Shown here: one piece after another, positions 3,169 through 30,272 of the stretch
How the letters are laid out: each line of letters opens with the position of its first letter
How positions within the stretch are numbered: the stretch's first letter is position 1
From: Escherichia phage S164
Sequence record: ON239131
Direction: 5' to 3' (one strand)
Length of the DNA: 30,272 nucleotides
Made by a program: the position numbers and the translations under genes
The notes under the pieces: generated by a model
Seen by the model: only the letters and a program-made list of their open reading frames with translations
Told to the model about the DNA's origin: nothing
Database searches by the model: none

Positions 3169-4023
3169 ATGGCAAAAAAAGTCTCAAAATTCTTTCGTAT
3201 CGGCGTTGAGGGTGACACCTGTGACGGGCGTGTCATCAGTGCGCAGGATATTCAGGAAATGGCCGAAACCTTTGACCCGCGAGTCTATGGTTGCCGCATT
3301 AACCTGGAACATCTGCGCGGCATCCTGCCTGACGGTATTTTTAAGCGTTATGGCGATGTGGCCGAACTGAAGGCCGAAAAGATTGACGATGATTCGGCGC
3401 TGAAAGGCAAATGGGCGCTGTTTGCGAAAATCACCCCGACCGATGACCTTATCGCGATGAACAAGGCCGCGCAGAAGGTCTATACCTCAATGGAAATTCA
3501 GCCGAACTTTGCCAATACCGGCAAATGTTATCTGGTGGGTCTGGCCGTCACCGATGACCCGGCAAGCCTCGGCACGGAATACCTGGAATTCTGCCGCACG
3601 GCAAAACACAACCCCCTGAACCGCTTCAAATTAAGCCCTGAAAACCTGATTTCAGTGGCAACGCCTGTTGAGCTGGAATTTGAAGACCTGCCTGAAACCG
3701 TGTTCACCGCCCTGACCGAAAAGGTGAAATCCATTTTTGGCCGCAAACAGGCCAGCGATGACGCCCGTCTGAATGACGTGCATGAAGCGGTGACCGCTGT
3801 TGCTGAACATGTGCAGGAAAAACTGAGCGCCACTGAGCAGCGCCTCGCTGAGATGGAAACCGCCTTTTCCGCACTTAAGCAGGATGTGACTGACAGGGCG
3901 GATGAAACCAGCCAGGCATTCACCCGCCTGAAAAACAGTCTCGACCACACCGAAAGTCTGACCCAGCAGCGCCGCAGCAAGGCCACCGGTGGTGGCGGTG
4001 ACGCCCTGATGACGAACTGCTGA
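3169..4023 (+). CDS. O: Capsid scaffolding protein
   Basis: Start taken at MAKKVSKFFRIG, inside track ORF 3103..4023, giving 284 aa as in P2 gpO. The C-terminal half looks coiled-coil and the gene lies just before the major capsid gene. Confidence 0.9.
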   Translation: MAKKVSKFFRIGVEGDTCDGRVISAQDIQEMAETFDPRVYGCRINLEHLRGILPDGIFKRYGDVAELKAEKIDDDSALKGKWALFAKITPTDDLIAMNKAAQKVYTSMEIQPNFANTGKCYLVGLAVTDDPASLGTEYLEFCRTAKHNPLNRFKLSPENLISVATPVELEFEDLPETVFTALTEKVKSIFGRKQASDDARLNDVHEAVTAVAEHVQEKLSATEQRLAEMETAFSALKQDVTDRADETSQAFTRLKNSLDHTESLTQQRRSKATGGGGDALMTNC

Positions 4024-11932: not shown

Positions 11933-13344
11933 CAGTGAAATACTACGCCATTCTGACTAATCAGGGCGCGGCACGGCTGGCTAACGCGACGATGCTCGGA
12001 AGTAAGCTGAATCTGACGCAAATGGCCGTTGGTGATGCGAATGGTGTCTTGCCGACACCAGACCCGGCACAGACAAAGCTGATTAATCAGAAACGCATTG
12101 CACCGCTGAATCTTCTGAGTGTTGACCCGAACAACCAGAGCCAGATTATTGCGGAGCAAATCATCCCTGAGAACGAGGGCGGATTCTGGATCCGTGAGAT
12201 TGGGCTTTATGATGATGAAGGCGTACTCATTGCGGTGGCGAACTGCCCGGAAACGTACAAACCGCAGTTGCAGGAAGGCAGTGGTCGTACCCAGACTATC
12301 CGCATGATTCTGGTTGTCACGAACACCGAAGCCATCACGCTGAAAATCGACCCGTCGGTGGTACTGGCGACCCGTAAATACGTGGATGATAAGGTCCTGG
12401 AATTAAAGCTGTATGTGGATGACCAGATGAGAAACCACATTGCCGCACAGGATCCTCATACCCAGTATGCACAGAAACATAATCCGACATTTACCGGAGA
12501 ACCAAAAGCGCCGACGCCTGCCGCAGGAAATAACACCACGCGGATTGCGACTACTGCGTTTGTTCAGGCCGCTATTACCGCTCTGATTAACGGTGCGCCA
12601 GCCACGCTGGACACACTGAAAGAAATTGCCGCAGCCATTAACAATGACCCGAAATTCAGTACCACCATTAACAATGCGCTGGCACTAAAAGCCCCGCTGT
12701 CGAGTCCGGCACTCACCGGAACGCCAACAGCACCTACTGCGGCACAGTCGGTCAACAATACACAGATTGCCACCACGGCTTTTGTGAAATCAGCAATTGC
12801 GGCAATGGTGGGTTCTGCCCCTGCGGCACTGGATACACTGAATGAACTGGCGGCGGCGCTGGGGAATGACCCTAACTTTTCAACAACAGTGCTTAATGCA
12901 CTGGCAGGTAAACAACCGCTGGACAATACGCTGACTAATTTGAGTGGAAAGGATGTAGCTGGTCTTCTCGCATACCTTCAATTGGGAGAAGCGGCAAAAC
13001 GTAATGTCGGCACCGGTGCAAACCAGATACCGGACATGAACAGTTTTACGTCAGGAAGTACGACAACAGCAGACTGGTACAAGTTACCTGGTGGGTTGCT
13101 TATTCAGTCAGGGATTAATGCGGTTGGTTATATTGGTTCGCCGTTTACTATCGGTCTTCCGGTTGCATTTTCGAACGCCAATTACCGCATAGTTGCCAGT
13201 TATGACAACGCGAGAGCTAACGCAACCTACGGTTTTGCAATGTCTGCCCTCCCGTCAACTGCATCAGCATTCACAATTAACTCAAGTTCAAATGCATCAG
13301 TCGGGCCGGTTTACGCTTACTGGATTGCAATCGGTAAATACTAA
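11929..13344 (+). CDS. H: Tail fibre protein, currently expressed form (constant part 11929..12978 plus variable tip 12979..13344)
   Basis: 471 aa. The N-terminus carries the conserved GGFWIREIGLYDDEGVLIAVAN motif of P2 H / Mu S / P1 S-type fibres. There are two tandem fibre repeats, and an invertase crossover site lies inside the gene at 12965..12990. Confidence 0.9.
   Translation: MTVKYYAILTNQGAARLANATMLGSKLNLTQMAVGDANGVLPTPDPAQTKLINQKRIAPLNLLSVDPNNQSQIIAEQIIPENEGGFWIREIGLYDDEGVLIAVANCPETYKPQLQEGSGRTQTIRMILVVTNTEAITLKIDPSVVLATRKYVDDKVLELKLYVDDQMRNHIAAQDPHTQYAQKHNPTFTGEPKAPTPAAGNNTTRIATTAFVQAAITALINGAPATLDTLKEIAAAINNDPKFSTTINNALALKAPLSSPALTGTPTAPTAAQSVNNTQIATTAFVKSAIAAMVGSAPAALDTLNELAAALGNDPNFSTTVLNALAGKQPLDNTLTNLSGKDVAGLLAYLQLGEAAKRNVGTGANQIPDMNSFTSGSTTTADWYKLPGGLLIQSGINAVGYIGSPFTIGLPVAFSNANYRIVASYDNARANATYGFAMSALPSTASAFTINSSSNASVGPVYAYWIAIGKY
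12481..12921 (+). repeat. Tandem ~73-aa tail-fibre repeat inside H (2 copies: 12481..12699 and 12700..12921)
   Basis: NPTFTGEPKAPTPAAGNNTTRIATTAFVQAAITALINGAPATLDTLKEIAAAINNDPKFSTTINNALALKAPL aligns with SSPALTGTPTAPTAAQSVNNTQIATTAFVKSAIAAMVGSAPAALDTLNELAAALGNDPNFSTTVLNALAGKQPL. Confidence 0.85.
12965..12990 (+). promoter_or_regulatory. Left 26-bp DNA-invertase crossover site (hix/gix/cix-like) inside H
   Basis: TTCTCGCATACC-TT-CAATTGGGAGAA. It has TTCTC...GAGAA ends and a central TT, and it matches the reverse complement of the site at 14316..14341 at 17 of 26 positions. It resembles the Hin/Gin half-site TT(A/C)TCnnAAACC. Confidence 0.75.
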
Positions 13345-13356
13345 AAGGCAAATATC

Positions 13357-13779
13357 ATGGGTGAAACAGATTATATTTTCAGTGCGTTCCTGAATGGTTT
13401 TTTACCGCTGGCGTGGAAAGAAGAGAAAGAGGCAACAGGTTCGTGGCCTGATGACGCAATTGAAATAAGCTATGAAGATTATTTGAAGTTTACGACCGAT
13501 GCGCCGAAGGGAAAAATATTGGGTTCGGTTGACGGGCGACCGGCATGGGTTGATATCCCACCGCCGACACATGAAGAACTGATTGCCAGTGCAGAAGCAA
13601 CAAGATTAAGACTGAAGGCTAATGCAGATGCTGAAATCGGCTGGCGACAGGATGCCGTTGATGCGGGCATTGCGACGGACGAGGAAACCGCCATACTCGC
13701 CGAGTGGAAAAAATACCGGGTCTTGCTGATGCGCGTCGACACAGCAAAACCCGTATGGCCTACGCTTCCGACTGCATAA
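13357..13779 (+). CDS. Tail fibre assembly chaperone (Tfa; functional analogue of P2 G / Mu U)
   Basis: 140 aa. The C-terminal part (ATDEETAILAEWKKYRVLLMRVDTAKPVWPTLP) carries the W-K-x-Y-R-x-x-L-x-R-V-D signature shared by lambda Tfa, P2 G and Mu U. It lies directly after the fibre gene. Confidence 0.85.
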   Translation: MGETDYIFSAFLNGFLPLAWKEEKEATGSWPDDAIEISYEDYLKFTTDAPKGKILGSVDGRPAWVDIPPPTHEELIASAEATRLRLKANADAEIGWRQDAVDAGIATDEETAILAEWKKYRVLLMRVDTAKPVWPTLPTA

Positions 13780-13945
13780 TATCAATTAATATCGGTTCGC
13801 CGTTCTCATCGACGGCGAGCATTTTCCCAGCCGGTATTTCTGTTGCGGTAAAAAACCAGTTATCATCCGGCAGTTCTACGGCCCCTTCAGTGCTATGAAT
13901 GCCGGGGATAACTTCATTAAGTGTCTCAGGATTAAAAAGGCGCAT
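13760..13945 (-). CDS. Alternative tail fibre assembly protein, N-terminal domain only (61 aa; truncated or remnant)
   Basis: Start taken at MRLFNPETLNEV..., with the ATG at 13945 overlapping the end of the alternative fibre tip. It ends ...ENGEPILIDIMQSEA*, exactly where full-length Tfa proteins continue into the conserved C-terminal domain. Its last 20 nt overlap the 3' end of the plus-strand tfa. Confidence 0.6.
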   Translation of the reverse strand: MRLFNPETLNEVIPGIHSTEGAVELPDDNWFFTATEIPAGKMLAVDENGEPILIDIMQSEA

Positions 13946-14327
13946 AGCGAGCACTCCAATAAAAACCGTCAGCGGATGTTGTTCCATCAGATCGTAATAC
14001 AAGAAAAGTAGCTTTTGTTGCATCAGTTAAATCAGTTATGACCATCGGTACCCTGACCTTATAAGGGGTTGCTGATGACAATAACAGCGGAGTGGTAGTG
14101 ATAACCTGTGCAGGAGCAGGCAGAGAAATCGGATAATAAACCGCAGCATTTCCCGATATGTTAGCCACAGCATTTCCCCACACCTCTATAGTGCCATCGC
14201 TCCAGATTCGGTATTTACCATTCGCATTCGAGCCTGTTTTAGTCACCACGGCACATTTATCTGTATCGGTATTAACGTTACCAATCAGTGCCAATTTTCC
14301 ACTGGTATTTCCCGCTTCTGCTAAACG
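13932..14327 (-). CDS. Silent alternative tail-fibre C-terminal tip (Hv'), with no start of its own; expressed only after inversion
   Basis: The minus-strand frame reads RLAEAGNTSGKLALIGNVNTDTDK...FYWSARYAPF* (131 codons) from the crossover site. It is in the same codon phase as H at the left site, so inversion would produce a 481-aa fibre. Confidence 0.75.
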   Translation of the reverse strand, partial: RLAEAGNTSGKLALIGNVNTDTDKCAVVTKTGSNANGKYRIWSDGTIEVWGNAVANISGNAAVYYPISLPAPAQVITTTPLLLSSATPYKVRVPMVITDLTDATKATFLVLRSDGTTSADGFYWSARYAPF

Positions 14328-14341
14328 AACGTTTATGAAAA
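14316..14341 (-). promoter_or_regulatory. Right 26-bp DNA-invertase crossover site (inverted relative to the left site)
   Basis: On the minus strand: TTTTCATAAACG-TT-CGTTTAGCAGAA. The half-sites TTTTCATAAACG and TTCTGCTAAACG are near-symmetric and fit the Hin/Gin/Cin consensus. The central TT is identical to that of the left site. Confidence 0.8.
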
Positions 14342-14396
14342 TGCAGAGATAACGGGTAACTGGCATCATCTCCGGTTTTTATTCAGGGGGATGCTC

Positions 14397-14990
14397 ATGC
14401 TTATTGGCTATGTACGCGTGTCAACAAATGACCAGAACACGGAATTGCAGCGTAACGCGCTGGAGTGCGCGGGATGTGAGCGGATTTTTGAGGACAAAAT
14501 CAGCGGCACGAAGTCCGACCGACCGGGACTGAAAAAACTGCTCAGAACATTATCAGCAGGTGACACTCTGGTAGTCTGGAAGCTGGACAGGCTGGGGCGT
14601 AGTATGCGGCATCTGGTCATTCTGGTTGAGGAACTGCGCGAACGCGGCGTTAATTTTCGCAGCCTGACAGATGCTATTGATACCAGCACGCCGATGGGGC
14701 GTTTTTTCTTTCATGTGATGGGTGCCCTGGCTGAAATGGAGCGAGAACTCATTGTCGAGCGGACACGCGCCGGACTGGAAGCGGCCAGAGCTAAAGGTCG
14801 TATTGGTGGCAGACGTCCGAAACTCACCGCGAGTGAGTGGGAGCAGGCCGGGCGGTTGCTGGCTGCAGGGGAATCACGTCAACGCGTGGCACTGATTTTT
14901 GATATTGGCCTGTCCACGCTCTATAAAAAATTCCCCGCCTCAGTGACAAAAAATAAATTGTGTCATCCCTTAGCCAACCGGGACAAATAG
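14397..14990 (+). CDS. Serine DNA invertase (Hin/Gin/Cin/Pin family)
   Basis: MLIGYVRVSTNDQNT...DRPGL...GDTLVVWKLDRLGRSM...MGRFFFHVMGALAEMERELIVERT...GRIGGRRPKL...STLYKKFPA is collinear with Gin and Hin. The catalytic Ser is present in the YVRVST motif. I preferred the second ATG (14397) because of its spacing from the GGGGG Shine-Dalgarno sequence. Confidence 0.93.
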   Translation: MLIGYVRVSTNDQNTELQRNALECAGCERIFEDKISGTKSDRPGLKKLLRTLSAGDTLVVWKLDRLGRSMRHLVILVEELRERGVNFRSLTDAIDTSTPMGRFFFHVMGALAEMERELIVERTRAGLEAARAKGRIGGRRPKLTASEWEQAGRLLAAGESRQRVALIFDIGLSTLYKKFPASVTKNKLCHPLANRDK

Positions 14991-21433: not shown

Positions 21434-21652
21434 ATGTTTCATTGTCCTTTATGCCAGCATGCCGCACATGCGCGTACAAGCCGCTATATCACTGACACGA
21501 CAAAAGAGCGTTATCACCAGTGTCAGAACGTGAATTGCAGCGCCACGTTCATCACTTATGAGTCGGTACAGCGATACATCGTGAAGCCGGGAGAAGTCCA
21601 CGCCGTCAGGCCGCACCCGTTGCCGTCAGGGCAGCAAATTATGTGGATGTAA
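21434..21652 (+). CDS. ogr: Late-gene transcription activator Ogr (Cys4 zinc finger)
   Basis: 72 aa starting at MFHCPLCQHAAHARTSRYITDTTKERYHQCQNVNCSATF, with a CxxC...CxxxxC zinc motif. It matches my memory of P2 Ogr. The longer track ORF start at 21371 was rejected. Confidence 0.92.
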   Translation: MFHCPLCQHAAHARTSRYITDTTKERYHQCQNVNCSATFITYESVQRYIVKPGEVHAVRPHPLPSGQQIMWM

Positions 21653-21664
21653 TTACAAACAGAA

Positions 21665-21690
21665 AGCCCCTCAGTCGAGGGGCTTTTTTT
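21665..21690 (+). terminator. Rho-independent terminator after ogr
   Basis: GCCCCTC-agtc-GAGGGGC at 21666..21683, followed by TTTTTTT at 21684..21690. Confidence 0.85.
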
Positions 21691-21868
21691 GTCGATGTGG
21701 TCAATGTGTGGACGTGACCAGAAATAAATCCTTTTATTTCATGCAATTAGATATCAAAAAATGTCACCAATAACTGACTTGGTAGCCCCCGCCGCAGCGG
21801 TATTTTCTGTTGTATTACAATTAGTTAAATTACTCATATCGCTTCAATTGGCTCTAGTTAACTCTGGT
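21691..21868. other. attP: attP region (core not pinpointed)
   Basis: Non-coding, AT-rich gap between the ogr terminator and the 3' end of int, as in P2. It contains direct TGTGG(T/A)C repeats (GATGTGGTCAATGTGTGGACG, about 21693..21713) and an 8-bp inverted repeat, GAAATAAA-tcct-TTTATTTC, at 21721..21740. I did not see the P2 core sequence I remember. Confidence 0.55.
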
Positions 21869-22864
21869 TTATGGACGCATTATGGACATTCCTGACACCG
21901 GGTTAAGAGTCACAGCATCTTGTAAGAAATCCGGTGCAAAGTGTGCGTAGGTCATAGTTTGCTGAATGTTAGAATGACCCAGGATGCGCTGCAATGTGAT
22001 TATGTTACCTCCATTCATTATAAAATGTGTGGCAAATGTATGCCTCAAAACATGCACTGCCTGTCCGTCAGGTAAATCGGGTTTTACTTCCCTGAGAGCG
22101 TTGCGCACTTTGTAGTAACTGGCATTAAAAAGCCTGCCTGAATTTTTGGTCTTGATCCGTTTAATCAGGTCCTGCGAAACGGGAATTGTCCTGCGCTTTC
22201 CGTTTTTAGTTTTCATAAACGTAACCATCTGGTTAATGATGTGTTCAGCTTTCAAATTAGACACTTCACTCCAGCGTCCACCAGTAGAAAGGCAGACCAG
22301 AGTTGCATTTAACTCATCACCATCAAGCATGGATAACAGCCGCGTAATCTCTTCACTGGACAAAAAAGCCATTTCCGTAACAGCTTCACGTAACCGCTTA
22401 ACCTCACGGAACGGGTTGTGAGAGTGATATTCACCGGCGTCAATTAACTTGGTGAACATCCCGCTCATTATTGCCAGATGCCGATTTACGCTGGCTGGTT
22501 TTAGGCCATCGTTCATCATTACAACGCGATAATCAGTTATCGTTTTCTTTGTTAGCTGGTCCGCCCTGGACACTCCCATCTCGGCAAATTTGGCGATTAT
22601 TGTCGTCAAACGCCCTCGTTCAATATCTCCACGCTCATGTGATTTTCCGTGATATATCCACCATCTGCCTAACAACTCTGTAAGAGTTCGGCGGTCGGCC
22701 GGCTTCTCCAACCACTCTTTGTTGTGGTAGTTAACCAGGACATGACGTTCGAATGCTTGAGCTTCACCTTTAGTTTTAAATTTCCGCCTGATACGTTTTC
22801 CATCTGCACCCTGCGGTCTGACGTCCACTTCATAACGACCATCATCGAGCTTTTTAATAGACAT
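21869..22864 (-). CDS. int: Tyrosine integrase
   Basis: 331 aa, collinear with P2 Int (MSIKKLDDGRYEVDVRP...; C-terminal HVLRHTFATHFIMNGGNIITLQRILGHSNIQQTMTYAHF with the R..HxxR..Y catalytic pattern) but clearly diverged in between. A GGAGGG Shine-Dalgarno sequence lies upstream. Confidence 0.92.
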   Translation of the reverse strand: MSIKKLDDGRYEVDVRPQGADGKRIRRKFKTKGEAQAFERHVLVNYHNKEWLEKPADRRTLTELLGRWWIYHGKSHERGDIERGRLTTIIAKFAEMGVSRADQLTKKTITDYRVVMMNDGLKPASVNRHLAIMSGMFTKLIDAGEYHSHNPFREVKRLREAVTEMAFLSSEEITRLLSMLDGDELNATLVCLSTGGRWSEVSNLKAEHIINQMVTFMKTKNGKRRTIPVSQDLIKRIKTKNSGRLFNASYYKVRNALREVKPDLPDGQAVHVLRHTFATHFIMNGGNIITLQRILGHSNIQQTMTYAHFAPDFLQDAVTLNPVSGMSIMRP

Positions 22865-22957
22865 AAAGCCCTCCGATGACGCTGTTTACTTCTACTACTT
22901 GAAAATTAATGCAATTTTCTTTCGTACATTTACTGCACACATATGCTGAATAAATCG

Positions 22958-23269
22958 TCAGCCAGTCTTTTGGTCTGAGTGGTGCAAGGTTGTTGAGTCT
23001 TGCCCAATGTGCGCGAGCGCCGGGGCTATTTGTCCGCCAGCGGGATCAGTTTCATCAAACATGAACCAGTCACGGTACTTGCGAAATCTTTCTGGCTTGA
23101 AAAATTTCATACCTGCGTCAAAAGACATCTTTACTTTTCCCTGCTCATATCCAGCATAGGTGTTGTAGTTAATTCCAGTTAATTCAGCAACTTGCTTCCT
23201 TGTCATTCTTTCTGATTCCCGAATAAGTGCGAGTTTCTCTGCTTGAGATGTGATTTGTGTATTTGACAT
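22958..23269 (-). CDS. C: Immunity repressor (P2 C-type, HTH)
   Basis: 103 aa. It has an HTH region (MTRKQVAELTGINYNTYAGYEQG) and a C-terminal GQIAPALAHIGQDSTTLHHSDQKTG that resembles the end of P2 C as I remember it. It is divergent from cox. Confidence 0.85.
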   Translation of the reverse strand: MSNTQITSQAEKLALIRESERMTRKQVAELTGINYNTYAGYEQGKVKMSFDAGMKFFKPERFRKYRDWFMFDETDPAGGQIAPALAHIGQDSTTLHHSDQKTG

Positions 23270-23291
23270 GAATTGTCGCGTAATTTATGTT
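23263..23291 (+). promoter_or_regulatory. Candidate early promoter Pe with a flanking inverted-repeat operator
   Basis: TTGACA (23263..23268), a 17-nt spacer, then TATGTT (23286..23291). The inverted repeat TGTCGC (23274..23279) / GCGACA (23296..23301) is centred on the -10 element. The -35 element overlaps the C start codon. Confidence 0.5.
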
Positions 23292-23368
23292 GTATGCGAC
23301 ACGCCAGAACAACGCAGAGCGGCTTCAAATAGCTCTGATTGAATGGCACCAAAGTTGAGGATATCAAA

Positions 23369-23725
23369 ATGAGTATTGGATCAGAAATGAATAACGATGT
23401 TGGAGAAAAAGTATCTGATCTCACAAAAAGTAAAAAATGTGACATCAAACTTGCAGCCGCACCGTCGGATTTGCTCTCGAAAGAGGGTTTTGCTCTTTAC
23501 ATCGGTAAGACGCCTCGTGCTGTTGCTGAAATGGCGAAAGCAGGCAAGTTACCAGCCTTTTATATGACGGACCCATTAAAGCCGGGCGGTCATGCTGAGT
23601 TATGGATTAATCGTCGTGAGTGGGACAAGTACGCAGCCCAGCTAGTTGATGAAGCTCCGACAGAATGGCATGACTGGAAAAATCGCATTAGTTACAGCAA
23701 ATCAAGACATGGCCGTGCGGCTTAA
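23369..23725 (+). CDS. cox: Cox-like excisionase / Pc repressor with an N-terminal extension
   Basis: ATG at 23369 with a GAGGA Shine-Dalgarno sequence 8 nt upstream; 118 aa. Residues ~40-110 (FALYIGKTPRAVAEMAKAGKLPAFYMTDPLKPGGHAELWINRREWDKY) parallel P2 Cox (FAKLIGKSTGAVRRMIDKGKLPVIDMTDP...). It is the first gene of the rightward early operon. Confidence 0.75.
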   Translation: MSIGSEMNNDVGEKVSDLTKSKKCDIKLAAAPSDLLSKEGFALYIGKTPRAVAEMAKAGKLPAFYMTDPLKPGGHAELWINRREWDKYAAQLVDEAPTEWHDWKNRISYSKSRHGRAA

Positions 23726-23735
23726 GGTGGAAAGG

Positions 23736-23906
23736 ATGAACGAGCCTCGTTGTATTGCTCAGTTATTGCGTAACGAAAGCCCCAGGGCGATTGACTTCAC
23801 CATCACCCACGGGAAGGGGCGCAAGGGAATCATTATCCGTACCAAAAAACAGAGTCCGTTAAAAAAGGCTCTGACCTTTCTGAAAAGCCGGAGGGTCTGG
23901 AAATGA
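23736..23906 (+). CDS. Small early protein (orf78 position), hypothetical
   Basis: 56 aa starting at MNEPRCIAQLL, with an AAGGTGGAAAGG Shine-Dalgarno sequence directly upstream. Its end overlaps the B start. The longer track start at 23646 lies inside cox and was not used. Confidence 0.6.
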   Translation: MNEPRCIAQLLRNESPRAIDFTITHGKGRKGIIIRTKKQSPLKKALTFLKSRRVWK

Positions 23907-24403
23907 CAGTGATGACGCTTAATCTCGTCGAAAAACAGCCAGCAGCTATGCGCCGGATAATTGGTAAGCATCTTGCCGTCCCTCGCTGGCAGGAGACATG
24001 CGATTATTATAATCAGATGATGGAACGCGAACGGCTAACGGTTTGCTTCCATGCGCAGTTAAAACAGCGTCACGCAACGATGCGTTTTGAAGAAATGAAT
24101 GATGTCGAACGTGAACGACTGGTATGTGCAATTGATGAATTGCGTGGGGCATTCTCAAAACGCCGTCAGGTTGGCGCAAGTGAGTATGCATATATTAGTT
24201 TTTTAACAGTCAGTCAGCGTCGTACTTTATTTATGCATGCCGGATTGACTGAAAAAGAATTCAACCAGCCATACTGGCGAATTAATGAAGAATCATGTTA
24301 CTGGCGTGATGCTTTATTCCGTGCATTACGTGAATTATTCAGCCTGTTTGAGTATGCACCGACAATTCTGACGTCGGTAAAACCAGAGCAATATCTGCAT
24401 TAA
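23903..24403 (+). CDS. B: Replication protein B (DnaB helicase loader)
   Basis: 166 aa, matching my memory of P2 gpB (MTVMTLNLVEKQPAAMRRIIGKHLAVPRWQ...). Confidence 0.9.
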   Translation: MTVMTLNLVEKQPAAMRRIIGKHLAVPRWQETCDYYNQMMERERLTVCFHAQLKQRHATMRFEEMNDVERERLVCAIDELRGAFSKRRQVGASEYAYISFLTVSQRRTLFMHAGLTEKEFNQPYWRINEESCYWRDALFRALRELFSLFEYAPTILTSVKPEQYLH

Positions 24404-24468
24404 GTAATTAACCAGAGTTTTTAACGCACTTAATTGTGCGGGGGGCTTCTTTTTGCCTGGAGAAAGTC

Positions 24469-24693
24469 ATGCATACAGTTTCTGAAAATCAGTGCGGTAA
24501 ATACGCATTACTGCTGCAACAGGCCAGAACCGAAGCACAGGCCGACGCAGCGACGCGCTTTTCTTCTCATCTTGACGCCATGATTCGCCACATCACAAAG
24601 GCGGAGTTATCCCGCGTGGAGATAGTCGAGCTGCTCAGTCAGGAGTCGGAAAAATTTCACAATATCGGATTGTCTCGCGGGGAGGTGCTTTGA
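24469..24693 (+). CDS. Hypothetical early protein (P2 orf80 position)
   Basis: 74 aa starting at MHTVSENQ, with a GGAGAAA Shine-Dalgarno sequence upstream. Confidence 0.7.
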
Positions 24694-24995
24694 TGTCCTG
24701 TTCTCGTTCAGTTGTATTACTGAATAACGCCTTAAAAATCGCCGTTATGAAAAATGGCGATTTATCTCTTATTCAACTTGGTCTTGATAAAGAAAAACGC
24801 GAAATAACTGAGTCTGTTATCGCGATTTATCAGAACGAATTAAATCTCCTGTCTGATGTGGTCAATTTACTTGTTAAACGCGCTGTATTTCACAAGCAAA
24901 TCTCCTCCGTGGATGAACTGACGAAATTAACGACAGAAATTGCCAGCTATTGCGCTGATGAATTTAAAAAACTTAACGACAAAAGGAGCTGGTAA
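24690..24995 (+). CDS. Hypothetical early protein (P2 orf81 position)
   Basis: 101 aa, with its start overlapping the upstream stop (ATGA). Confidence 0.7.
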
Positions 24996-25219
24996 TGCCG
25001 GACAACGTAGATTTTATTCAGAAACAACAGGCTGAATTACTGGAGCGCCAGATTAACGCGGCAAGGGTAAAGCATTGCGGTGTTTCTGCGCTGGTTTGCG
25101 AAGAGTGTGACGCGCCAATACCTGCTGCCCGTCGTGCGGCTTATCCGTCAGCCACGCGTTGTGTTTCCTGCCAGTCAGTCTTTGAAGCAAAAAACAAACA
25201 TTACCGGAGAACGTCATGA
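24995..25219 (+). CDS. TraR/DksA-type C4 zinc-finger protein (P2 orf82 position)
   Basis: 74 aa. It has the pattern CEECDAPIP...RCVSC, with two CxxC pairs separated by about 20 residues. Confidence 0.8.
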   Translation: MPDNVDFIQKQQAELLERQINAARVKHCGVSALVCEECDAPIPAARRAAYPSATRCVSCQSVFEAKNKHYRRTS

Positions 25220-25491
25220 GTATTCGTATTGAAATTGGCGAACGTTATGTCGTTACCAGTGACAGCTTTCAGTTTATTCTCCACGAGAAAAAGAGAGCTG
25301 AAAGCGGTAAAAACGCCGGTCAGGAATGGCTGGCGGTGGTTGGTTATTACCCGAAATTAAGCCAGCTTGTTTCCGGCCTGATGCATCACGATATTCTGAC
25401 CGGAAGCGCAAAGTCTTTTGCTGATTTAAACGCGCAGGTTGAGCAACTCAGCAAGCGTTGTTCAGAGGCTTTTGGCTCATATGGCCGTTAA
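25216..25491 (+). CDS. Hypothetical early protein (P2 orf83 position)
   Basis: 91 aa, translationally coupled at both ends. Confidence 0.7.
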   Translation: MSIRIEIGERYVVTSDSFQFILHEKKRAESGKNAGQEWLAVVGYYPKLSQLVSGLMHHDILTGSAKSFADLNAQVEQLSKRCSEAFGSYGR

Positions 25492-27766
25492 AGCCTCCGG
25501 GCGTTTTGTCCCTCCGTCAGCATTTGCCGCAGGCACCGGTGAGACGTTTACCGGTGCTTATGCATGGAACGCGCCACGCGAGGCCGTCGGGCGCGAAAGA
25601 CCCCTTACACGTGACGAGATGCGTCAGGTGCAAGGTGTTTTATCCACGATTAATCGCCTGCCTTACTTTTTGCGCTCGCTGTTTACTTCACGCTATGACT
25701 ACATCCGGCGCAATAAAAGCCCGGTGCACGGGTTTTATTTCCTCACATCCACTTTTCAGCGCCGTTTATGGCCGCGTATTGAGCGCGTGAATCAGCGCCA
25801 TGAAATGAACACCGACGCGTCGTTGCTGTTTCTGGCAGAGCGTGACCATTATGCGCGTCTGCCGGGGATGAATGACAAGGAGCTGAAAAAGTTTGCCGCC
25901 CGTATCTCATCGCAGCTTTTCATGATGTATGAGGAACTCTGCGATGCATGGGTTGATGCACATGGCGAGAAAGAATCGCTGTTTACAGATGAGGCGCAGG
26001 CGCATCTGTATGGTCATGTTGCTGGCGCTGCACGTGCTTTCAATATTTCCCCTCTCTACTGGAAAAAATACCGTAAAGGACAGATGACCACGAGGCAGGC
26101 ATATTCTGCCATTGCCCGTCTGTTTAACGATGAGTGGTGGACTCATCAGCTTAAAGGCCAGCGTATGCGCTGGCATGAGGCGTTACTGATTGCTGTCGGG
26201 GAGGTCAATAAAGACCGTTCTCCTTATGCCAGTAAACATGCCATTCGTGATGTGCGTGCACGCCGCCAGGCAAATCTGGAATTTCTTAAATCGTGTGACC
26301 TCGAAAACAGGGAAACCGGCGAGCGCATCGATCTTATCAGTAAGGTGATGGGCAGTATTTCTAATCCTGAAATTCGCCGGATGGAGCTGATGAACACCAT
26401 CGCCGGTATTGAGCGTTACGCCGCCGCAGAGGGTGATGTGGGGATGTTTATCACTCTGACCGCGCCGTCAAAGTATCACCCGACACGTCAGGTCGGAAAA
26501 GGCGAAAGTAAAACCGTCCAGCTAAATCACGGCTGGAATGATGAGGCATTTAATCCAAAGGATGCGCAGCGTTATCTCTGCCGCATCTGGAGCCTGATGC
26601 GCACGGCATTCAAGGATAATGATTTACAGGTCTACGGTTTGCGAGTCGTCGAGCCACACCACGACGGAACGCCGCACTGGCATATGATGCTTTTTTGTAA
26701 TCCACGCCAGCGTAACCAGATTATCGAAATCATGCGTCGCTATGCGCTCAAAGAGGATGGTGACGAAAGAGGAGCCGCGCGAAACCGTTTTCAGGCAAAA
26801 CACCTTAACCGGGGCGGTGCTGCGGGATATATCGCGAAATACATCTCAAAAAACATCGATGGCTATGCACTGGATGGTCAGCTCGATAACGATACCGGCA
26901 GGCCGCTGAAAGACACTGCCGCGGCTGTTACCGCATGGGCGTCAACGTGGCGCATTCCGCAATTTAAAACGGTTGGCCTGCCGACAATGGGGGCTTACCG
27001 TGAACTACGCAAATTGCCTCGCGGCGTCAGCATTGCTGATGAGTTTGACGAACGCGTCGAGGCTGCACGCGCTGCCGCAGACAGTGGTGATTTTGCGTTG
27101 TATATCAGCGCGCAGGGTGGGGCAAATGTTCCGCGCGATTGTCAGACTGTCAGGGTTGCCCGTAGTCCGTCGGATGAAGTTAACGAGTACGAGGAAGAAG
27201 TCGAGAGAGTGGTCGGCATTTACGCGCCGCATCTCGGCGCGCGTCATATTCATATCACCAGAACGACGGACTGGCGCATTGTTCCGAAAGTGCCGGTCGT
27301 TGAGCCTTTGACTTTAAAAAGCGGCATCGCCGCGCCTCGGAGTCCTGTCAATAACTGTGGAAAGCTCACCGGTGGTGATACTTCGTTACCGGCTCCCACA
27401 CCTTCTGAGCACGCCGCAGCAGTGCTAAATCTGGTTGATGACGGTGTTATCGAATGGAATGACCCGGAGGTTGTGAGGACGCTCAGGGGTGCATTAAAAC
27501 ACGGCCTGAAAACACCAAATCGTCAGCAAAGAAACGGAAGCCCGTTAAAACCACATGAAATAGCACCGTCGGCCAGACTGACCCGGTCGGAACGATTGCA
27601 AATTACCCGTATCCGCGTTGACCTCGCTCAGAACGGTATCAGGCCGCAACGATGGGAGCTTGAGGCGCTGGCGCGTGGCGCGACAGTAAATTATGACGGG
27701 AAAAAATTCACGTATCCGGTCGCTGATGAGTGGTCGGGATTCTCAACAGTAATGGAGTGGACATGA
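25481..27766 (+). CDS. A: Rolling-circle replication initiator (HUH endonuclease) A
   Basis: Start at MAVKASGRFVPP gives 761 aa, as in P2 gpA. It has the HUH motif (PHWHMMLF) and paired tyrosines (GYIAKYISK). Confidence 0.93.
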   Translation: MAVKASGRFVPPSAFAAGTGETFTGAYAWNAPREAVGRERPLTRDEMRQVQGVLSTINRLPYFLRSLFTSRYDYIRRNKSPVHGFYFLTSTFQRRLWPRIERVNQRHEMNTDASLLFLAERDHYARLPGMNDKELKKFAARISSQLFMMYEELCDAWVDAHGEKESLFTDEAQAHLYGHVAGAARAFNISPLYWKKYRKGQMTTRQAYSAIARLFNDEWWTHQLKGQRMRWHEALLIAVGEVNKDRSPYASKHAIRDVRARRQANLEFLKSCDLENRETGERIDLISKVMGSISNPEIRRMELMNTIAGIERYAAAEGDVGMFITLTAPSKYHPTRQVGKGESKTVQLNHGWNDEAFNPKDAQRYLCRIWSLMRTAFKDNDLQVYGLRVVEPHHDGTPHWHMMLFCNPRQRNQIIEIMRRYALKEDGDERGAARNRFQAKHLNRGGAAGYIAKYISKNIDGYALDGQLDNDTGRPLKDTAAAVTAWASTWRIPQFKTVGLPTMGAYRELRKLPRGVSIADEFDERVEAARAAADSGDFALYISAQGGANVPRDCQTVRVARSPSDEVNEYEEEVERVVGIYAPHLGARHIHITRTTDWRIVPKVPVVEPLTLKSGIAAPRSPVNNCGKLTGGDTSLPAPTPSEHAAAVLNLVDDGVIEWNDPEVVRTLRGALKHGLKTPNRQQRNGSPLKPHEIAPSARLTRSERLQITRIRVDLAQNGIRPQRWELEALARGATVNYDGKKFTYPVADEWSGFSTVMEWT
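27332..27351 (+). other. ori: Candidate origin / A-protein nick region inside the A gene
   Basis: GCGCCTCGGAGTCCTGTCAA lies about 1.85 kb into A. I recall that the P2 ori lies within A at about this relative position and contains this sequence. This rests on memory only. Confidence 0.35.
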
Positions 27767-28218
27767 TGGCAAAAATTCACGAGGTAAAGCTGCACGCAAA
27801 ATATTTCGACCTTGTGCTGGAAGGAAAGAAACGCGCAGAGTTTCGGAAAAATGACCGTAATTATGAGCGCGGGGACACGTTGATTTTGCATGAATGGGGG
27901 CAGGGTGTGTATACGGGGCGAAAGGTTGAAGCCCGGATAACAGATGTTACTGACCTGTCAGACTGGCTGGAAGATTATGTCTTGCTAAGTATTGAGCTGC
28001 TTAATACAGGCGCATATGAGATTGTGAACAGGAAAGAACTTAGTGAGCGTGGTCTGTTATTCAGAATTAATCATGAAATTATGCATAAGCTCGGCCTTGC
28101 TGTTATGTATGAACCAGAGACGGGAATGTCTGGCGGGGCAATGGTTGCCACGGATGGAGCATGGAACTATTCAGATGAACAGATGGAGCGTGCACAGCAA
28201 AACGGGTGGCTTGGATAA
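27763..28218 (+). CDS. ASCH/DUF3850-like (PUA-fold) protein with an extra ~70-aa C-terminal region
   Basis: 151 aa starting at MMAKIHEVKLHAKYFDLVLEGKKRAEFRKNDRNYERGDTLILHEW, which is the typical DUF3850/ASCH N-terminal pattern. The start overlaps the A stop (ATGATG). Confidence 0.7.
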   Translation: MMAKIHEVKLHAKYFDLVLEGKKRAEFRKNDRNYERGDTLILHEWGQGVYTGRKVEARITDVTDLSDWLEDYVLLSIELLNTGAYEIVNRKELSERGLLFRINHEIMHKLGLAVMYEPETGMSGGAMVATDGAWNYSDEQMERAQQNGWLG

Positions 28219-28424
28219 TGCACAGAATACCAGGCGAGATACCGCACCATAAAACTAAAAATATCAAGCTGATGGCTATTGTTCAGCGTTTACAGCGGAT
28301 TATGGTCAACGAAAATCTGACGCCCGATGAGCTAGTCGGGTGTGCCGAAATAGTCCGGGATAATTACGGGCGGTTTAACTATATCGGTCAGTCCAGAGTT
28401 GCGCCACCACCACGCAGACGATAG
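28218..28424 (+). CDS. Hypothetical 68-aa protein, translationally coupled (TAATG) to the ASCH gene
   Basis: MHRIPGEIPHHKTKNIKLMAIVQRLQRIMVNENLTPDELVGCAEIVRDNYGRFNYIGQSRVAPPPRRR. It ends at a TAG that is followed in frame by 24 sense codons. Confidence 0.55.
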   Translation: MHRIPGEIPHHKTKNIKLMAIVQRLQRIMVNENLTPDELVGCAEIVRDNYGRFNYIGQSRVAPPPRRR

Positions 28425-28426
28425 AT

Positions 28427-28495
28427 AACGCCGCCAGTCGTGAAACTTGTTTTCAGGGCTGGCGGCGTTGAACAACGAGTGAAGCGAGGCGTTAG
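28427..28495 (+). repeat. 69-nt element, copy A (11-bp perfect hairpin with a 21-nt loop, plus a 26-nt tail)
   Basis: AACGCCGCCAG (28427..28437) pairs with CTGGCGGCGTT (28459..28469). An ungapped alignment to 29399..29467 gives 51/69 identities. Confidence 0.8.
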
Positions 28496-28653
28496 TTGAC
28501 ATTCATATTTTTACTGCGTTGGTGCTGTTTTTTGACGGTTGAAAGGAGTTATCTCGGAGAGCTAAAGCTAACAACTTACAAATATTCAAAAGTAAGCTTC
28601 CTGTTGCTAACATAAGGTCGATTTTTTATGTGGATGATGCAAAAAGGATAGCT

Positions 28654-29385
28654 ATGGATACTATAATCGCTTTTCTATCACTCGCTTTTTTTGTTGCTTT
28701 TTTCATCGGGTTAATCAAGCCATCACTGGTGCGAATGCCAAGCCGCAAACGTGCAAGTGCGGTTTATCTCGGAGGAGGTTTTGTATTGAGCATAATTGGT
28801 TCAATACTCTATCCAACAGAAAAAAGCCAGCCAGTTGCTAAAACTGAAACATCAACCGTTGTAGAACACCAAGTCCAAAAAACATTCGAATATGGTGAAA
28901 AAACACTCAAGGAATATCGGAGCGAGCCAAAGAAAACTCGACACGATATTGTGAATAGTTACATTGACTTTAAGAAAGTTCCAGTCACCGCATCAGATGC
29001 ATTTTATGCCTGCATGAGTGAGTATACATTTACCAAAGATGATGAGTTGAAACTCGGTGATGTTCTTGGGTGGTGCTTTAATGATTATGAAAATGACCCG
29101 AGTTCACTAAATAATAAAATCAATCTTGATACATTTCAGAGTAATTTTAGTGGTTGGGATGGTTCTTATCGTCCATTGGAAAAACTAATTAAAGATAATA
29201 TGAACGATGATTCATCTTATAAACATGTATCAACGGTATATCATTTAGTTTTGAATAAAGACCCGCACGCCATTGTGAAAACGACGTTTCGCGGCACTAA
29301 TGCTTATGGTGGCATGGTCAAACAGACTGTAGCAGCGCGAGTTGACGTGCGAACGGGTGAGATCGATTCAATACTCGACAATTAA
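28654..29385 (+). CDS. Two-TM membrane protein with a predicted ~180-aa periplasmic C-terminal domain; cargo gene 1, function unknown
   Basis: ATG at 28654 with an AAAGGA Shine-Dalgarno sequence, preferred over the GTG at 28630; 243 aa. TM1 is IIAFLSLAFFVAFFIGLI, followed by a basic loop (KPSLVRMPSRKRAS), TM2 (VYLGGGFVLSIIGSILY) and then a soluble domain. The gene is AT-rich relative to the backbone. Confidence 0.75.
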   Translation: MDTIIAFLSLAFFVAFFIGLIKPSLVRMPSRKRASAVYLGGGFVLSIIGSILYPTEKSQPVAKTETSTVVEHQVQKTFEYGEKTLKEYRSEPKKTRHDIVNSYIDFKKVPVTASDAFYACMSEYTFTKDDELKLGDVLGWCFNDYENDPSSLNNKINLDTFQSNFSGWDGSYRPLEKLIKDNMNDDSSYKHVSTVYHLVLNKDPHAIVKTTFRGTNAYGGMVKQTVAARVDVRTGEIDSILDN

Positions 29386-29398
29386 ATAATATAGTGAC

Positions 29399-29467
29399 AG
29401 CTCCGTCAGTGATGAAACTTGCTTTTAGTCTTGGCGGGGTTGAGCAATGAGTCTTGCAAGGTGTTAG
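29399..29467 (+). repeat. 69-nt element, copy B (same hairpin geometry, 7 Watson-Crick plus 4 G.U pairs)
   Basis: AGCTCCGTCAG (29399..29409) pairs with TTGGCGGGGTT (29431..29441), with a 21-nt loop. It is 51/69 identical to copy A. Confidence 0.8.
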
Positions 29468-29507
29468 CATGCGTAGAATGGAAGCTGCTTGGACGTGGGG
29501 TATTCAT

Positions 29508-30125
29508 ATGAATTTAAAAATTTTCGGCATAATTGTCCTTTCTGCTTTGATGTTCGTTTTAGGTTTTTTTCTCGGTGGTTTTAATTGGGAATGGGCTGAT
29601 AAGAATTATGCAGGTGAGGTGGCGTTGTGGAGTATGTTAGGAGGGTGGTTATCCGCAATTGCAACTCTGTTTGCCGTGTTGGTTTCATTATATATGGCGT
29701 ATCAAGCTACTCAGAATGAGATTGAAAAAATCAGGGTTACTCATGGAGTAAGTATGAGTGTCACTCATGACAATGAGTTAAGTTGTAATCTCATTATTCA
29801 GAACTTGAGAAATATGAAAGTGAATATTACTGGTGTTTTTTTGTCTCTAGGTAAATCATCAGGTAAGTACTCTTTGGATAAAGTAATTGACAATTGTAAT
29901 ATAACGCTTTCATATAAAGGTGAAACAGAAAAGGTACAATTTGTAATCCATTCTGGGTATATTTGGTGGTCAATGTATAAATTATTCGATATGGATAAGA
30001 ACATAGGTTTTGAAAAGGGTAAGATCTTTATAACAACCAACCTCAATACATATGAATTTGATTTGCCAAAAGAATATTTAAGAGCTTTTGAGAAAGCTTA
30101 TTCGGAGTATCAGACAAAAAAATAA
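29508..30125 (+). CDS. Two-TM membrane protein with a predicted ~130-aa cytoplasmic C-terminal domain; cargo gene 2, function unknown
   Basis: ATG at 29508 (MNLKIFGIIVLSALMFVLGFFLGG...) is preferred over the TTG at 29454; 205 aa. The second TM helix is ALWSMLGGWLSAIATLFAVLVSLYMAY. The C-terminal domain is rich in N, K and I. The gene is very AT-rich. Confidence 0.75.
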   Translation: MNLKIFGIIVLSALMFVLGFFLGGFNWEWADKNYAGEVALWSMLGGWLSAIATLFAVLVSLYMAYQATQNEIEKIRVTHGVSMSVTHDNELSCNLIIQNLRNMKVNITGVFLSLGKSSGKYSLDKVIDNCNITLSYKGETEKVQFVIHSGYIWWSMYKLFDMDKNIGFEKGKIFITTNLNTYEFDLPKEYLRAFEKAYSEYQTKK

Positions 30126-30132
30126 TGAGCTG

Positions 30133-30154
30133 CATGCAAAAGGTGCATGTTTTT
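30133..30154 (+). terminator. Rho-independent terminator after cargo gene 2
   Basis: CATGCA-aaagg-TGCATG at 30133..30149, followed by TTTTT at 30150..30154. It starts 8 nt after the stop codon. Confidence 0.6.
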
Positions 30155-30254
30155 GCATGTGCTAAGTTCACTGGTTTTGTGTATATCGCTTCAGATCTAG
30201 CGTGGTTCCGGGGAGGGCATGCAACTGCATTAAAACCGCTCCATGAAGCGGGCG

Positions 30255-30272
30255 GGCGAGGCGGGGAAAGCA
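30255..30272. other. cos: cos cohesive-end sequence (right copy, first 18 nt)
   Basis: GGCGAGGCGGGGAAAGCA is identical to 1..18. The window ends one base short of the full 19-mer. Confidence 0.85.

Follow-up and report, generated by a model that had tools for sequence, protein, structure and literature searches.

Two membrane-protein genes between gene A and cos

We analyzed a stretch of 30,272 nucleotides from Escherichia phage S164 (sequence record ON239131; hereafter, the window), focusing on two adjacent plus-strand genes, termed gene 1 and gene 2, that are located close to its 3' end. The window is a complete P2-like phage genome, and its 3' end, read directly, is a P2-type cos sequence, GGCGAGGCGGGGAAAGCA. 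The original prediction, which was made from the sequence alone, held that the two genes encode unrelated membrane proteins with two transmembrane (TM) segments each and that together they are a candidate for an undescribed exclusion or defense module. Both open reading frames (ORFs) were found where they had been placed (gene 1, 28654-29385, 243 amino acids [aa]; gene 2, 29508-30125, 205 aa), and the peptide motifs that had been quoted are present in the two proteins. We found that gene 1 is an orthologue of orf97 of coliphage 186, that gene 2 belongs to a catalogued but uncharacterized family, and that the two lie side by side as cassettes that can be exchanged independently, each of which follows a copy of a conserved sequence that we call the junction element. 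The features of the segment are as follows.

28424..28495, plus strand: junction element copy 1, with a 19-bp hairpin and then a near-invariant tail, GAACAACGAG-N4-GCGAGGCGTTAG
28496..28653, plus strand: spacer upstream of gene 1, ~95% conserved in P2-type phages with orf97
28604-28632, plus strand: decayed homologue of the 186 partial terminator t95a, from the alignment with 186
28654-29385, plus strand: gene 1, orthologue of coliphage 186 orf97, 243 aa
29396..29467, plus strand: junction element copy 2, degraded, after the orf97 stop codon; the variable slot starts beyond it
29508-30125, plus strand: gene 2, member of phrog_16957, 205 aa (or 218 aa from ATG 29469)
30132..30160, plus strand: intrinsic terminator closing the gene 1-gene 2 unit, at the position of 186 t95b

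The gene 1 protein aligned with 186 Orf97 without gaps over 243/243 aa, with 78% identity (BLASTP, E 9e-152), and the nucleotide sequences of the two genes are ~76% identical (megablast, phage records). The claim that gene 1 matches no named gene was therefore wrong, as megablast, BLASTP, and the GenBank entry U32222 all lead to 186 orf97. Gene 1 also matched all 243 profile positions of phrog_3403 (E 7e-144). The phrog_3403/Orf97 family comprises 158 protein clusters across Enterobacterales, with identities of 53 to 95%, and it is far more conserved and widespread than typical hotspot cargo. The length of its members is almost invariant at 243 aa, which backs ATG 28654 as the start codon of gene 1. 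As in 80 Orf97 loci from the IMG/VR database, gene 1 lies between gene A and cos. The GenBank note on 186 orf97 (U32222) reads "expression from plasmid blocks 186 infection," and the exclusion role that had been suggested for the segment is thus plausible for gene 1. The same record gives the gene order p95 (a LexA-controlled promoter), tum, t95a (a partial terminator), orf97, and t95b, and tum and orf97 were called the 186 SOS operon in a paper on the Salmonella prophage BTP5 (PMC5322425); elsewhere in the literature, we found only passing mentions of Orf97. In Escherichia coli strain E1 (NZ_CM145183.1, 3174-4682), the match to gene 1 is interrupted and falls into two pieces, and an IS1A-family transposase is annotated beneath it; here the orf97 homologue seems to have been knocked out by a natural insertion, with gene 2 intact downstream.

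We then analyzed the architecture of the gene 1 protein. Its AlphaFold model (mean pLDDT, 83.5) shows two N-terminal helices of TM length. The protein is predicted to have its N terminus outside, with TM1 (residues 2 to 21) and TM2 (residues 31 to 52) connected by a basic cytoplasmic loop (charge, +5/0). This loop, GLIKPSLVRMPxRKR, is near-invariant in an alignment of 33 to 34 diverse members, in which the invariant residues include G19, L20, P23, V26, M28, R31, C120, and C141; the last two are the sole cysteines of gene 1. The predicted periplasmic domain (~190 aa) consists of a disordered linker (residues 56 to 74), a helical subdomain (residues 85 to 163) that holds both cysteines, and a C-terminal part made of a helix and a four-stranded sheet. 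Taken with the positive-inside rule, the conserved basic loop and the cysteine pair support a periplasmic location of the C-terminal domain.

The predicted structure of this domain combines an HdeA-like helical subdomain with a small alpha/beta subdomain, and its closest folds are those of the periplasmic proteins HdeA, HdeB, and YmgD and of the type VI secretion system (T6SS) immunity proteins Rap1a and Tai4, in keeping with a periplasmic location. The likeness to HdeA/HdeB and Rap1a/Tai4 is at the fold level only (5 to 16% sequence identity over ~65 of the 243 residues), and gene 1 differs from these proteins in being membrane anchored and in having an extra C-terminal subdomain. Since small helical bundles match easily, we draw no functional conclusion from these folds. 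A Foldseek search of BFVD with gene 1 returned only weak matches of ~70 columns to small phage "lipoproteins," too weak to name the envelope or lipoprotein domain that its C-terminal part had been said to resemble. Gene 1 had no match in Pfam. Neither protein matched a PADLOC-DB v2 family at E ≤ 1 or an NCBIfam family above the cutoff, and nothing significant was found among PDB sequences.

Gene 2 matched phrog_16957 (E 2.2e-94; residues 1 to 205 on profile positions 14 to 221 of 223), a family annotated as of unknown function in PHROGs v4. We counted 18 clusters in this family by an indexed search and 41 representatives at 50% identity by an exhaustive profile search; a scan of genome contigs for gene 2 relatives gave two loci only. 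Relatives are found in Salmonella phage BIS20 and in Peduovirus P24A7b and 9W, and the gene 2 of the window is the E. coli variant, 62 to 65% identical to the Klebsiella, Salmonella, and Citrobacter copies. The only match in Pfam was a single sub-threshold one, at chance level. The AlphaFold model (mean pLDDT, 85.8) again shows two N-terminal helices of TM length, and the protein is predicted to have its N terminus inside, with TM1 at residues 2 to 22 followed by a short acidic/aromatic periplasmic loop (charge, +1/−3). TM2 is rich in small residues (MLGGWxSxxATLxAVxVSL) and is the best-conserved segment of the protein. It is followed by a beta-sandwich domain of ~130 aa, predicted to face the cytoplasm and generic in its fold. 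The two-TM layout and the opposite topologies originally proposed for the two proteins thus hold, according to both the AlphaFold helices and the loop charges, and the proteins are unrelated to each other (hhalign probability, 13%).

The start of gene 2 is ambiguous. ATG 29508 is common to the whole family, and RefSeq starts the gene at ATG 29469 (218 aa). The resulting extension of 13 residues (29469-29507), which adds MRRMEAAWTWGIH, is kept in the closest relatives (P0122-P0124) and is missing in the 205-aa Klebsiella and Citrobacter members. The 3' end of junction element copy 2 lies right beside ATG 29469. Distant gene 2 relatives (profile E about 1e-40) also occur in unrelated larger phages (~56 to 60 kb; L035-L047); one example is a locus of an IMG/VR phage of ~60 kb (L039, 4962-5555), where the gene lies within the head-morphogenesis module, in the order portal DUF4055, Mu F-like, DnaT_2-like, gene 2 relative, and major capsid.

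Hotspot cargo made of two separable cassettes

The segment had been assigned to the P2 tin/old cargo position, and it is indeed cargo of the hotspot located between gpA and cos/gpQ. The backbone features that frame it in the window are as follows.

25439-27766: replication gene A
27763-28218: gene at the orf91 position, directly upstream of the hotspot, with a DUF3850/ASCH (RNA-binding-type) domain fused to DUF7415
28218-28424: small backbone ORF, whose stop codon is the start of junction element copy 1
30218..30272: cos-proximal conserved backbone, the right edge of the variable region

The gene at the orf91 position gave a weak, sub-threshold match to PDC-M11B in PADLOC (E 0.027). The G+C contents that had been counted by hand for two 60-nucleotide (nt) lines were exact (16/60 for 29101..29160 and 18/60 for 29761..29820), and the G+C fraction is 0.388 in gene 1 and 0.332 in gene 2, versus 0.539 for bases 1 to 25000.

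The gpA-gpQ/cos hotspot is an established reservoir of anti-phage systems, being home to old, tin, and many validated defense systems (Rousset et al. 2022, PMC9122126; Vassallo et al. 2022, PMC9519451), and it also holds nondefense cargo, such as partitioning systems and cytolethal distending toxin (Rousset et al. 2022, PMC9122126). The type of cargo present in the window has been catalogued: the exact four-gene arrangement (a DUF3850/ASCH gene and three hypotheticals, including gene 1 under accession WP_042002655) appears in Table S5 of Rousset et al. 2022 (PMC9122126), where it was untested and is not among the P2-hotspot systems named as validated. Given this listing and the membership of gene 1 in a known family (186 orf97, phrog_3403), the segment does not qualify as "undescribed." It is ordinary hotspot cargo and not a new two-gene defense module, with the gene and a recorded phenotype already known for gene 1, and gene 2 sitting in a catalogued PHROG that is uncharacterized.

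The evaluation of the two genes in other genomes showed that they are adjacent, separately exchangeable cassettes, so that the proposed "module" was not supported: their divergence is uncoupled and each is found alone. In 5426 complete E. coli genomes, gene 2 was present in 29, with gene 1 adjoining in all of them (29/29), and these gene 2 copies are 97 to 100% identical and therefore count as essentially one lineage. Gene 1 was present in 87 of the genomes and hence occurs mostly without gene 2; 1585 genomes matched the neighboring backbone. Klebsiella prophages and Salmonella phage BIS20 have the order A, tum/DinI, orf97, gene 2 homologue (62 to 65% identity), and portal, and in P24A7b and 9W, the gene after orf97 encodes a 232-aa protein of the gene 2 family with about 23 to 31% identity. 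Among the 80 Orf97 loci from IMG/VR, a gene 2 relative was located downstream in 19 to 20 cases, and the other downstream occupants were a 260-aa family (16 cases), families of 311 to 326 aa (12 cases), a 429-aa protein, a DUF262-like protein, or none. Of the many alternatives found in the slot after orf97, the gene 2 family is thus the most frequent. As for the 35 gene 2-family loci, Orf97 was directly upstream in 16, while 6 were in a P2/186-type hotspot without Orf97 and 13 in unrelated phages. Relatives of gene 2 without Orf97 were found directly after A (L014, a Serratia prophage) and directly after tum (L022).

The two genes do not diverge together either. Orf97 alleles that are 93 to 96% identical to that of the window adjoin gene 2 relatives of 23 to 32% identity, alleles of 78 to 79% identity adjoin relatives of 61 to 78%, and the correlation between Orf97 and gene 2 divergence is low (Spearman, 0.24). 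The consistent co-occurrence and co-divergence of an obligate pair were therefore found neither in the 80 Orf97 loci nor in the 35 gene 2-family loci. At the nucleotide level, the homology of the window with P2-type relatives (95 to 96%) stops at the orf97 stop codon (29372-29385) and is back at 30218 (30218-30219 for 9W, P22H4, P24A7b, and P2-type loci of IMG/VR), and the stretch 28604-30272 is collinear with 186-type phages at 72 to 73% identity.

Junction element and expression signals

The two copies of the junction element form a 72-nt direct repeat (74% identity), with one copy ahead of each gene. The element, ~70 nt long, is present once each in many P2/186-like phages, including 186, P2, Wphi, PSP3, EtG, and BIS20; it lies at 3772-3842 of the phage 186 locus (L001), at 1801-1865 of the Wphi locus (L128), and in many other IMG/VR loci, and we found it in 514/5426 complete E. 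coli genomes, where the median copy number is one. In 186-type phages, it is located 10 to 18 nt 3' of the orf97 stop codon, a position matched by copy 2. In P2-type phages whose orf97 is not accompanied by a gene 2 relative, the element precedes orf97 by ~155 nt, and in P2-type loci with both genes, it flanks orf97 on both sides in 6/8 cases, as in the window. Homology between phages with different cargo stops at the 3' end of the element, at the motif CGAGGCGTTAG, and the homology of P2 and Wphi to the window likewise stops at 28497, the 3' end of copy 1. The junction element marks the left edge of the variable cargo region, where cassettes are swapped. Because it is conserved, it may act as a homology anchor for cargo exchange.

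The hairpin of the element covaries. In an alignment of 34 distinct copies, 93% of the cells were paired and 9/19 pairs showed compensatory double changes; none of 500 shuffles reached these values, and controls in which the pairing was slid fell to 34 to 51%. The RNA of copy 1 folds with −35.1 kcal/mol (z, −4.7). Copy 2 folds on the plus strand through G-U pairs (−21.9 kcal/mol) and not on the minus strand (−8.2 kcal/mol), and three of the consensus hairpin pairs are G-U. The G-U pairs and the restriction of the copy 2 hairpin to the plus strand argue for a structure at the RNA level, in the sense orientation. The element is possibly a structured feature at the 3' end of a conserved operon, where it could be a barrier or a processing site at the mRNA 3' end. 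An intrinsic terminator was rejected, as the hairpin is followed by GAACAACGAG without a U-tract and the terminator scan made no call. We also rejected the idea that nuclease A, an HUH rolling-circle enzyme, uses the element as a secondary substrate: the element and the 186 origin region have no k-mer of 8 or more in common. Comparison with the 3' part of gene A in the window gave one isolated minus-strand 10-mer, CCTGAAAACA, at 27505. The element had no match in Rfam (the only hit in 28100-30272 was a chance-level snoRNA located elsewhere; E 0.82) and is unannotated in the 186 and Wphi records. The 2026 NAR study of P2/P4 hotspot evolution takes up cassette exchange, does not mention the element, and names no such site. 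This covarying element was our least expected result, and it gives a sequence handle on cassette exchange at the hotspot. The conserved 3' arm of the hairpin (28457-28464) holds GCTGGCGG, which differs from the E. coli Chi octamer GCTGGTGG by a single mismatch, and among the copies listed, those of L125 and L088 read CTGGTGG, i.e., 7/8 Chi bases; a link between this Chi-like arm and recombination is possible.

We next consider how the two genes are expressed. The promoters that had been proposed for the cassette (28585..28613 and a −10 element at 29474..29479) were both under the threshold of 9/12 consensus positions, and the region contains 7 promoter-like sites, versus 6.1 ± 2.4 expected from shuffles. 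Moreover, the first of the proposed −10 elements, TAACAT, sits inside the decayed t95a homologue. Homology to 186 begins at 28604, and the t95a stem, which folds with −21.7 kcal/mol in 186, folds with −7.5 kcal/mol in the window, the G+C-rich stem being gone. Upstream transcription would therefore no longer be attenuated before orf97. The ATG of gene 1 is preceded by a ribosome-binding site, AAAGGA. The terminator that had been read at 30133..30154 was recovered: the terminator scan identified a hairpin with a 7-bp stem and a T-run at 30132-30150 (fold, −15.4 kcal/mol; z, −2.4). The stretch 30131-30253 aligns with 186 30501-30623, the segment after t95b; t95b itself is at 30436-30463. The scan placed a terminator after gene 2 and none in the gap that separates it from gene 1, which makes co-transcription of the pair likely. 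The transcription could come from a weak promoter of the cassette itself or from read-through of the early operon past the hairpin.

We found no LexA box near either gene, the count over the whole window being at chance level, and no tum homologue upstream of gene 1. In the 80 Orf97 loci, tum was directly upstream in 59, and the remaining 21 have a P2-type context without tum, like the window. The SOS operon (p95-tum-t95a-orf97-t95b) is thus absent from the window, and membership in it is a feature of the 186 operon and not of the protein family. Compared with 186 Orf97 (CP97; U32222, AAC34191.1), which is encoded by the second gene of the tum-orf97 operon, gene 1 likewise has two TM segments and a predicted periplasmic domain with C120 and C141, and it likewise lies between A and cos with a junction element after its stop codon. 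The window differs from 186 in lacking tum, the p95 promoter, and the LexA box, and in having a decayed t95a stem. Further differences are that its orf97 homologue stands in a P2-type (non-SOS) backbone, after the backbone copy of the junction element, and that it is followed by gene 2, whereas 186 has orf97 alone, with nothing between orf97 and t95b.

Proposed superinfection exclusion and alternative roles

We propose that gene 1 encodes a superinfection-exclusion protein of the 186 Orf97 family, which would block genome entry after adsorption, and that gene 2 is a second, autonomous cassette acting at the membrane; we give this reading a probability of roughly 0.55. The segment is the variable cargo region and is made of two exchangeable cassettes, each located after a copy of the junction element. 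In this proposal, the gene 1 protein sits in the inner membrane, with its conserved basic loop on the cytoplasmic side and a periplasmic domain that could form a disulfide, and Orf97 proteins would stop the genome entry of P2/186-type phages, and possibly of others, at the periplasm or the inner membrane. P2-like phages adsorb to structures associated with lipopolysaccharide (LPS) (PMC13622650), so an inner-membrane protein would act after adsorption, and the block by Orf97 would fall after the LPS step. A likely route is that Orf97 binds or obstructs the ejected tail-tip or tape-measure proteins, or their site at the membrane. Gene 2, with two TM helices, of which TM2 would be suited to helix packing, and a predicted cytoplasmic beta-sandwich, would most plausibly be a second, independent exclusion or abortive factor at the membrane level and not an obligatory partner of Orf97. 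The link between gene 1 and orf97 offers a cheap hypothesis, namely, a membrane-level block of P2/186 genome entry, for a family that is conserved across Enterobacterales, is SOS controlled in 186-type phages, and has been without a mechanism since the 1990s. Orf97 is also relevant to recent ideas on how phages limit reinfection by their own progeny, and gene 2, as a single gene, lends itself well to functional screening.

Phages T4 (Imm and Sp), P22 (SieA), and HK97 (gp15) encode membrane-anchored superinfection-exclusion proteins that block DNA entry. As proposed here, gene 1 would resemble them in being a small phage inner-membrane protein with a periplasm-exposed part and a post-adsorption block, but it has no sequence relationship to them (Pfam, PADLOC, annotated PHROG, and NCBIfam) and its predicted fold is different. 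Of the classical occupants of the P2 slot, Old is a soluble ABC-ATPase/TOPRIM nuclease and Tin is a soluble protein acting on T-even replication. The genes of the window share with old and tin the slot between gpA/orf91 and cos and are, like them, AT-rich accessory genes of a P2-like phage; in contrast, both of their products are membrane proteins, and neither matched a PADLOC model.

Several points weigh against the exclusion proposal. All that is on record about the function of Orf97 is one line in GenBank, on expression from a plasmid, and the 186-blocking phenotype could be an overexpression artifact of a membrane protein. We found no homology of the two proteins to a characterized superinfection-exclusion (Sie) or defense protein in Pfam, PADLOC, or NCBIfam, and gene 2 has no experimental record and a generic beta-sandwich fold. 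In 186-type phages, orf97 is SOS induced together with the antirepressor gene tum, and such control fits a role in the phage's own induction program as well as it fits lysogen defense. Finally, gene 2 relatives often adjoin orf97, in 16/22 loci of P2/186 context as well as in the 29/29 E. coli genomes, which would suit some functional cooperation between the two genes, one that neither gene needs for its persistence.

The SOS control in 186-type phages and a conservation that is unusually high for cargo make it a serious rival, though one that we judge unlikely, that Orf97 serves the induction or lytic program of the phage itself. Orf97 would then not be a lysogen defense; it could, for example, shield the induced cell from sister progeny ("anti-Kronos") or change the envelope before lysis. 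It would be expressed with Tum under SOS control in 186-type phages and by early-operon read-through in the window, and the block of 186 from a plasmid would reflect the same activity or an artifact. In keeping with this, tum lies immediately upstream in 59/80 Orf97 loci, p95 is LexA controlled, and t95a is only a partial terminator ahead of orf97; the decay of the t95a stem and the lack of a credible promoter of its own make read-through plausible in the window, and the Kronos/anti-Kronos concept is described in a preprint that treats phage superinfection exclusion (PMC13622650). However, the orf97 of P2-type phages has neither tum nor a LexA box and lies beyond the backbone junction element, like cargo, and its absence from most P2-like prophages (it is present in 87/5426 E. 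coli genomes, compared with 1585 for the neighboring backbone) indicates that it is not essential. Such a role would also overlap mechanistically with superinfection exclusion. About equally improbable, in our view, is that gene 2, and perhaps gene 1 as well, has a moron role directed at the host (envelope physiology or fitness/virulence) or is selfish filler without a selectable function. The absence of any defense-family match, the generic beta-sandwich, and the nondefense cargo of the hotspot (Rousset et al. 2022, PMC9122126) suit this idea, as do the distant gene 2 relatives in the head-morphogenesis module of unrelated phages of ~56 to 60 kb, a typical moron slot. On the other hand, the gene 2 family keeps TM2 and its full length down to ~20% identity, which points to purifying selection, it has so far been found in phage and prophage contexts only, and the slot is dominated by anti-phage systems (PMC9122126, PMC9519451).

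We consider more doubtful still that gene 1 and gene 2 form a two-component, envelope-spanning exclusion or abortive module in which both are needed, Orf97 being the sensor or blocker and gene 2 the partner or effector. The two genes share a strand and are separated by 122 nt, the only terminator follows gene 2, their predicted topologies are complementary, and gene 1 adjoins gene 2 in every one of the 29 E. coli genomes that carry the latter. Moreover, at least four very divergent gene 2 subfamilies (~100%, 61 to 78%, 31 to 36%, and 23 to 28% identity) are located directly after orf97, in P2-type and 186-type phages. Yet the E. coli copies represent essentially one lineage, about 60 of the 80 Orf97 loci are without a gene 2 relative and 19/35 gene 2-family loci are without Orf97, and 186 shows the recorded phenotype with orf97 alone. 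The lack of co-divergence (Spearman, 0.24, and near-identical Orf97 alleles beside partners of 23 to 32% identity) also speaks against a module, and in 186-type phages all hotspot cargo sits "after orf97" by construction. Two bolder ideas, which may hold together, have a similarly small chance. One is that members of the gene 2 family work jointly with Orf97 in an exclusion device that spans the envelope. Here, the periplasmic domain of Orf97 would make contact with tail-tip or tape-measure proteins once these are ejected, its cytoplasm-facing partner would shut or abort the route of entry, and the gene 2-type partner would be swapped to retarget specificity. The other is that the junction hairpin is a dedicated RNA or DNA signal, which could be a processing or stabilizing site or a recombination-promoting site instead of a passive homology patch and would set where P2/186-like phages exchange their defense cargo.

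Two observations concern other parts of the P2/186-like genomes. In a Klebsiella prophage (L011, 1760-3247; GCA_029541645.1), an oppositely oriented gene for a 495-aa reverse transcriptase (RVT_1) separates gene A from the tum-orf97-gene 2 block, so that in 186-type prophages cargo can be inserted upstream of the SOS operon too. In the window, the composition profile showed further low-G+C stretches at 21500-25000 and 13000-14500 (0.42 to 0.45, versus ~0.55); the former probably corresponds to the immunity/integrase region together with Z/fun, the second P2 hotspot, and the latter probably to the tail-fiber region.

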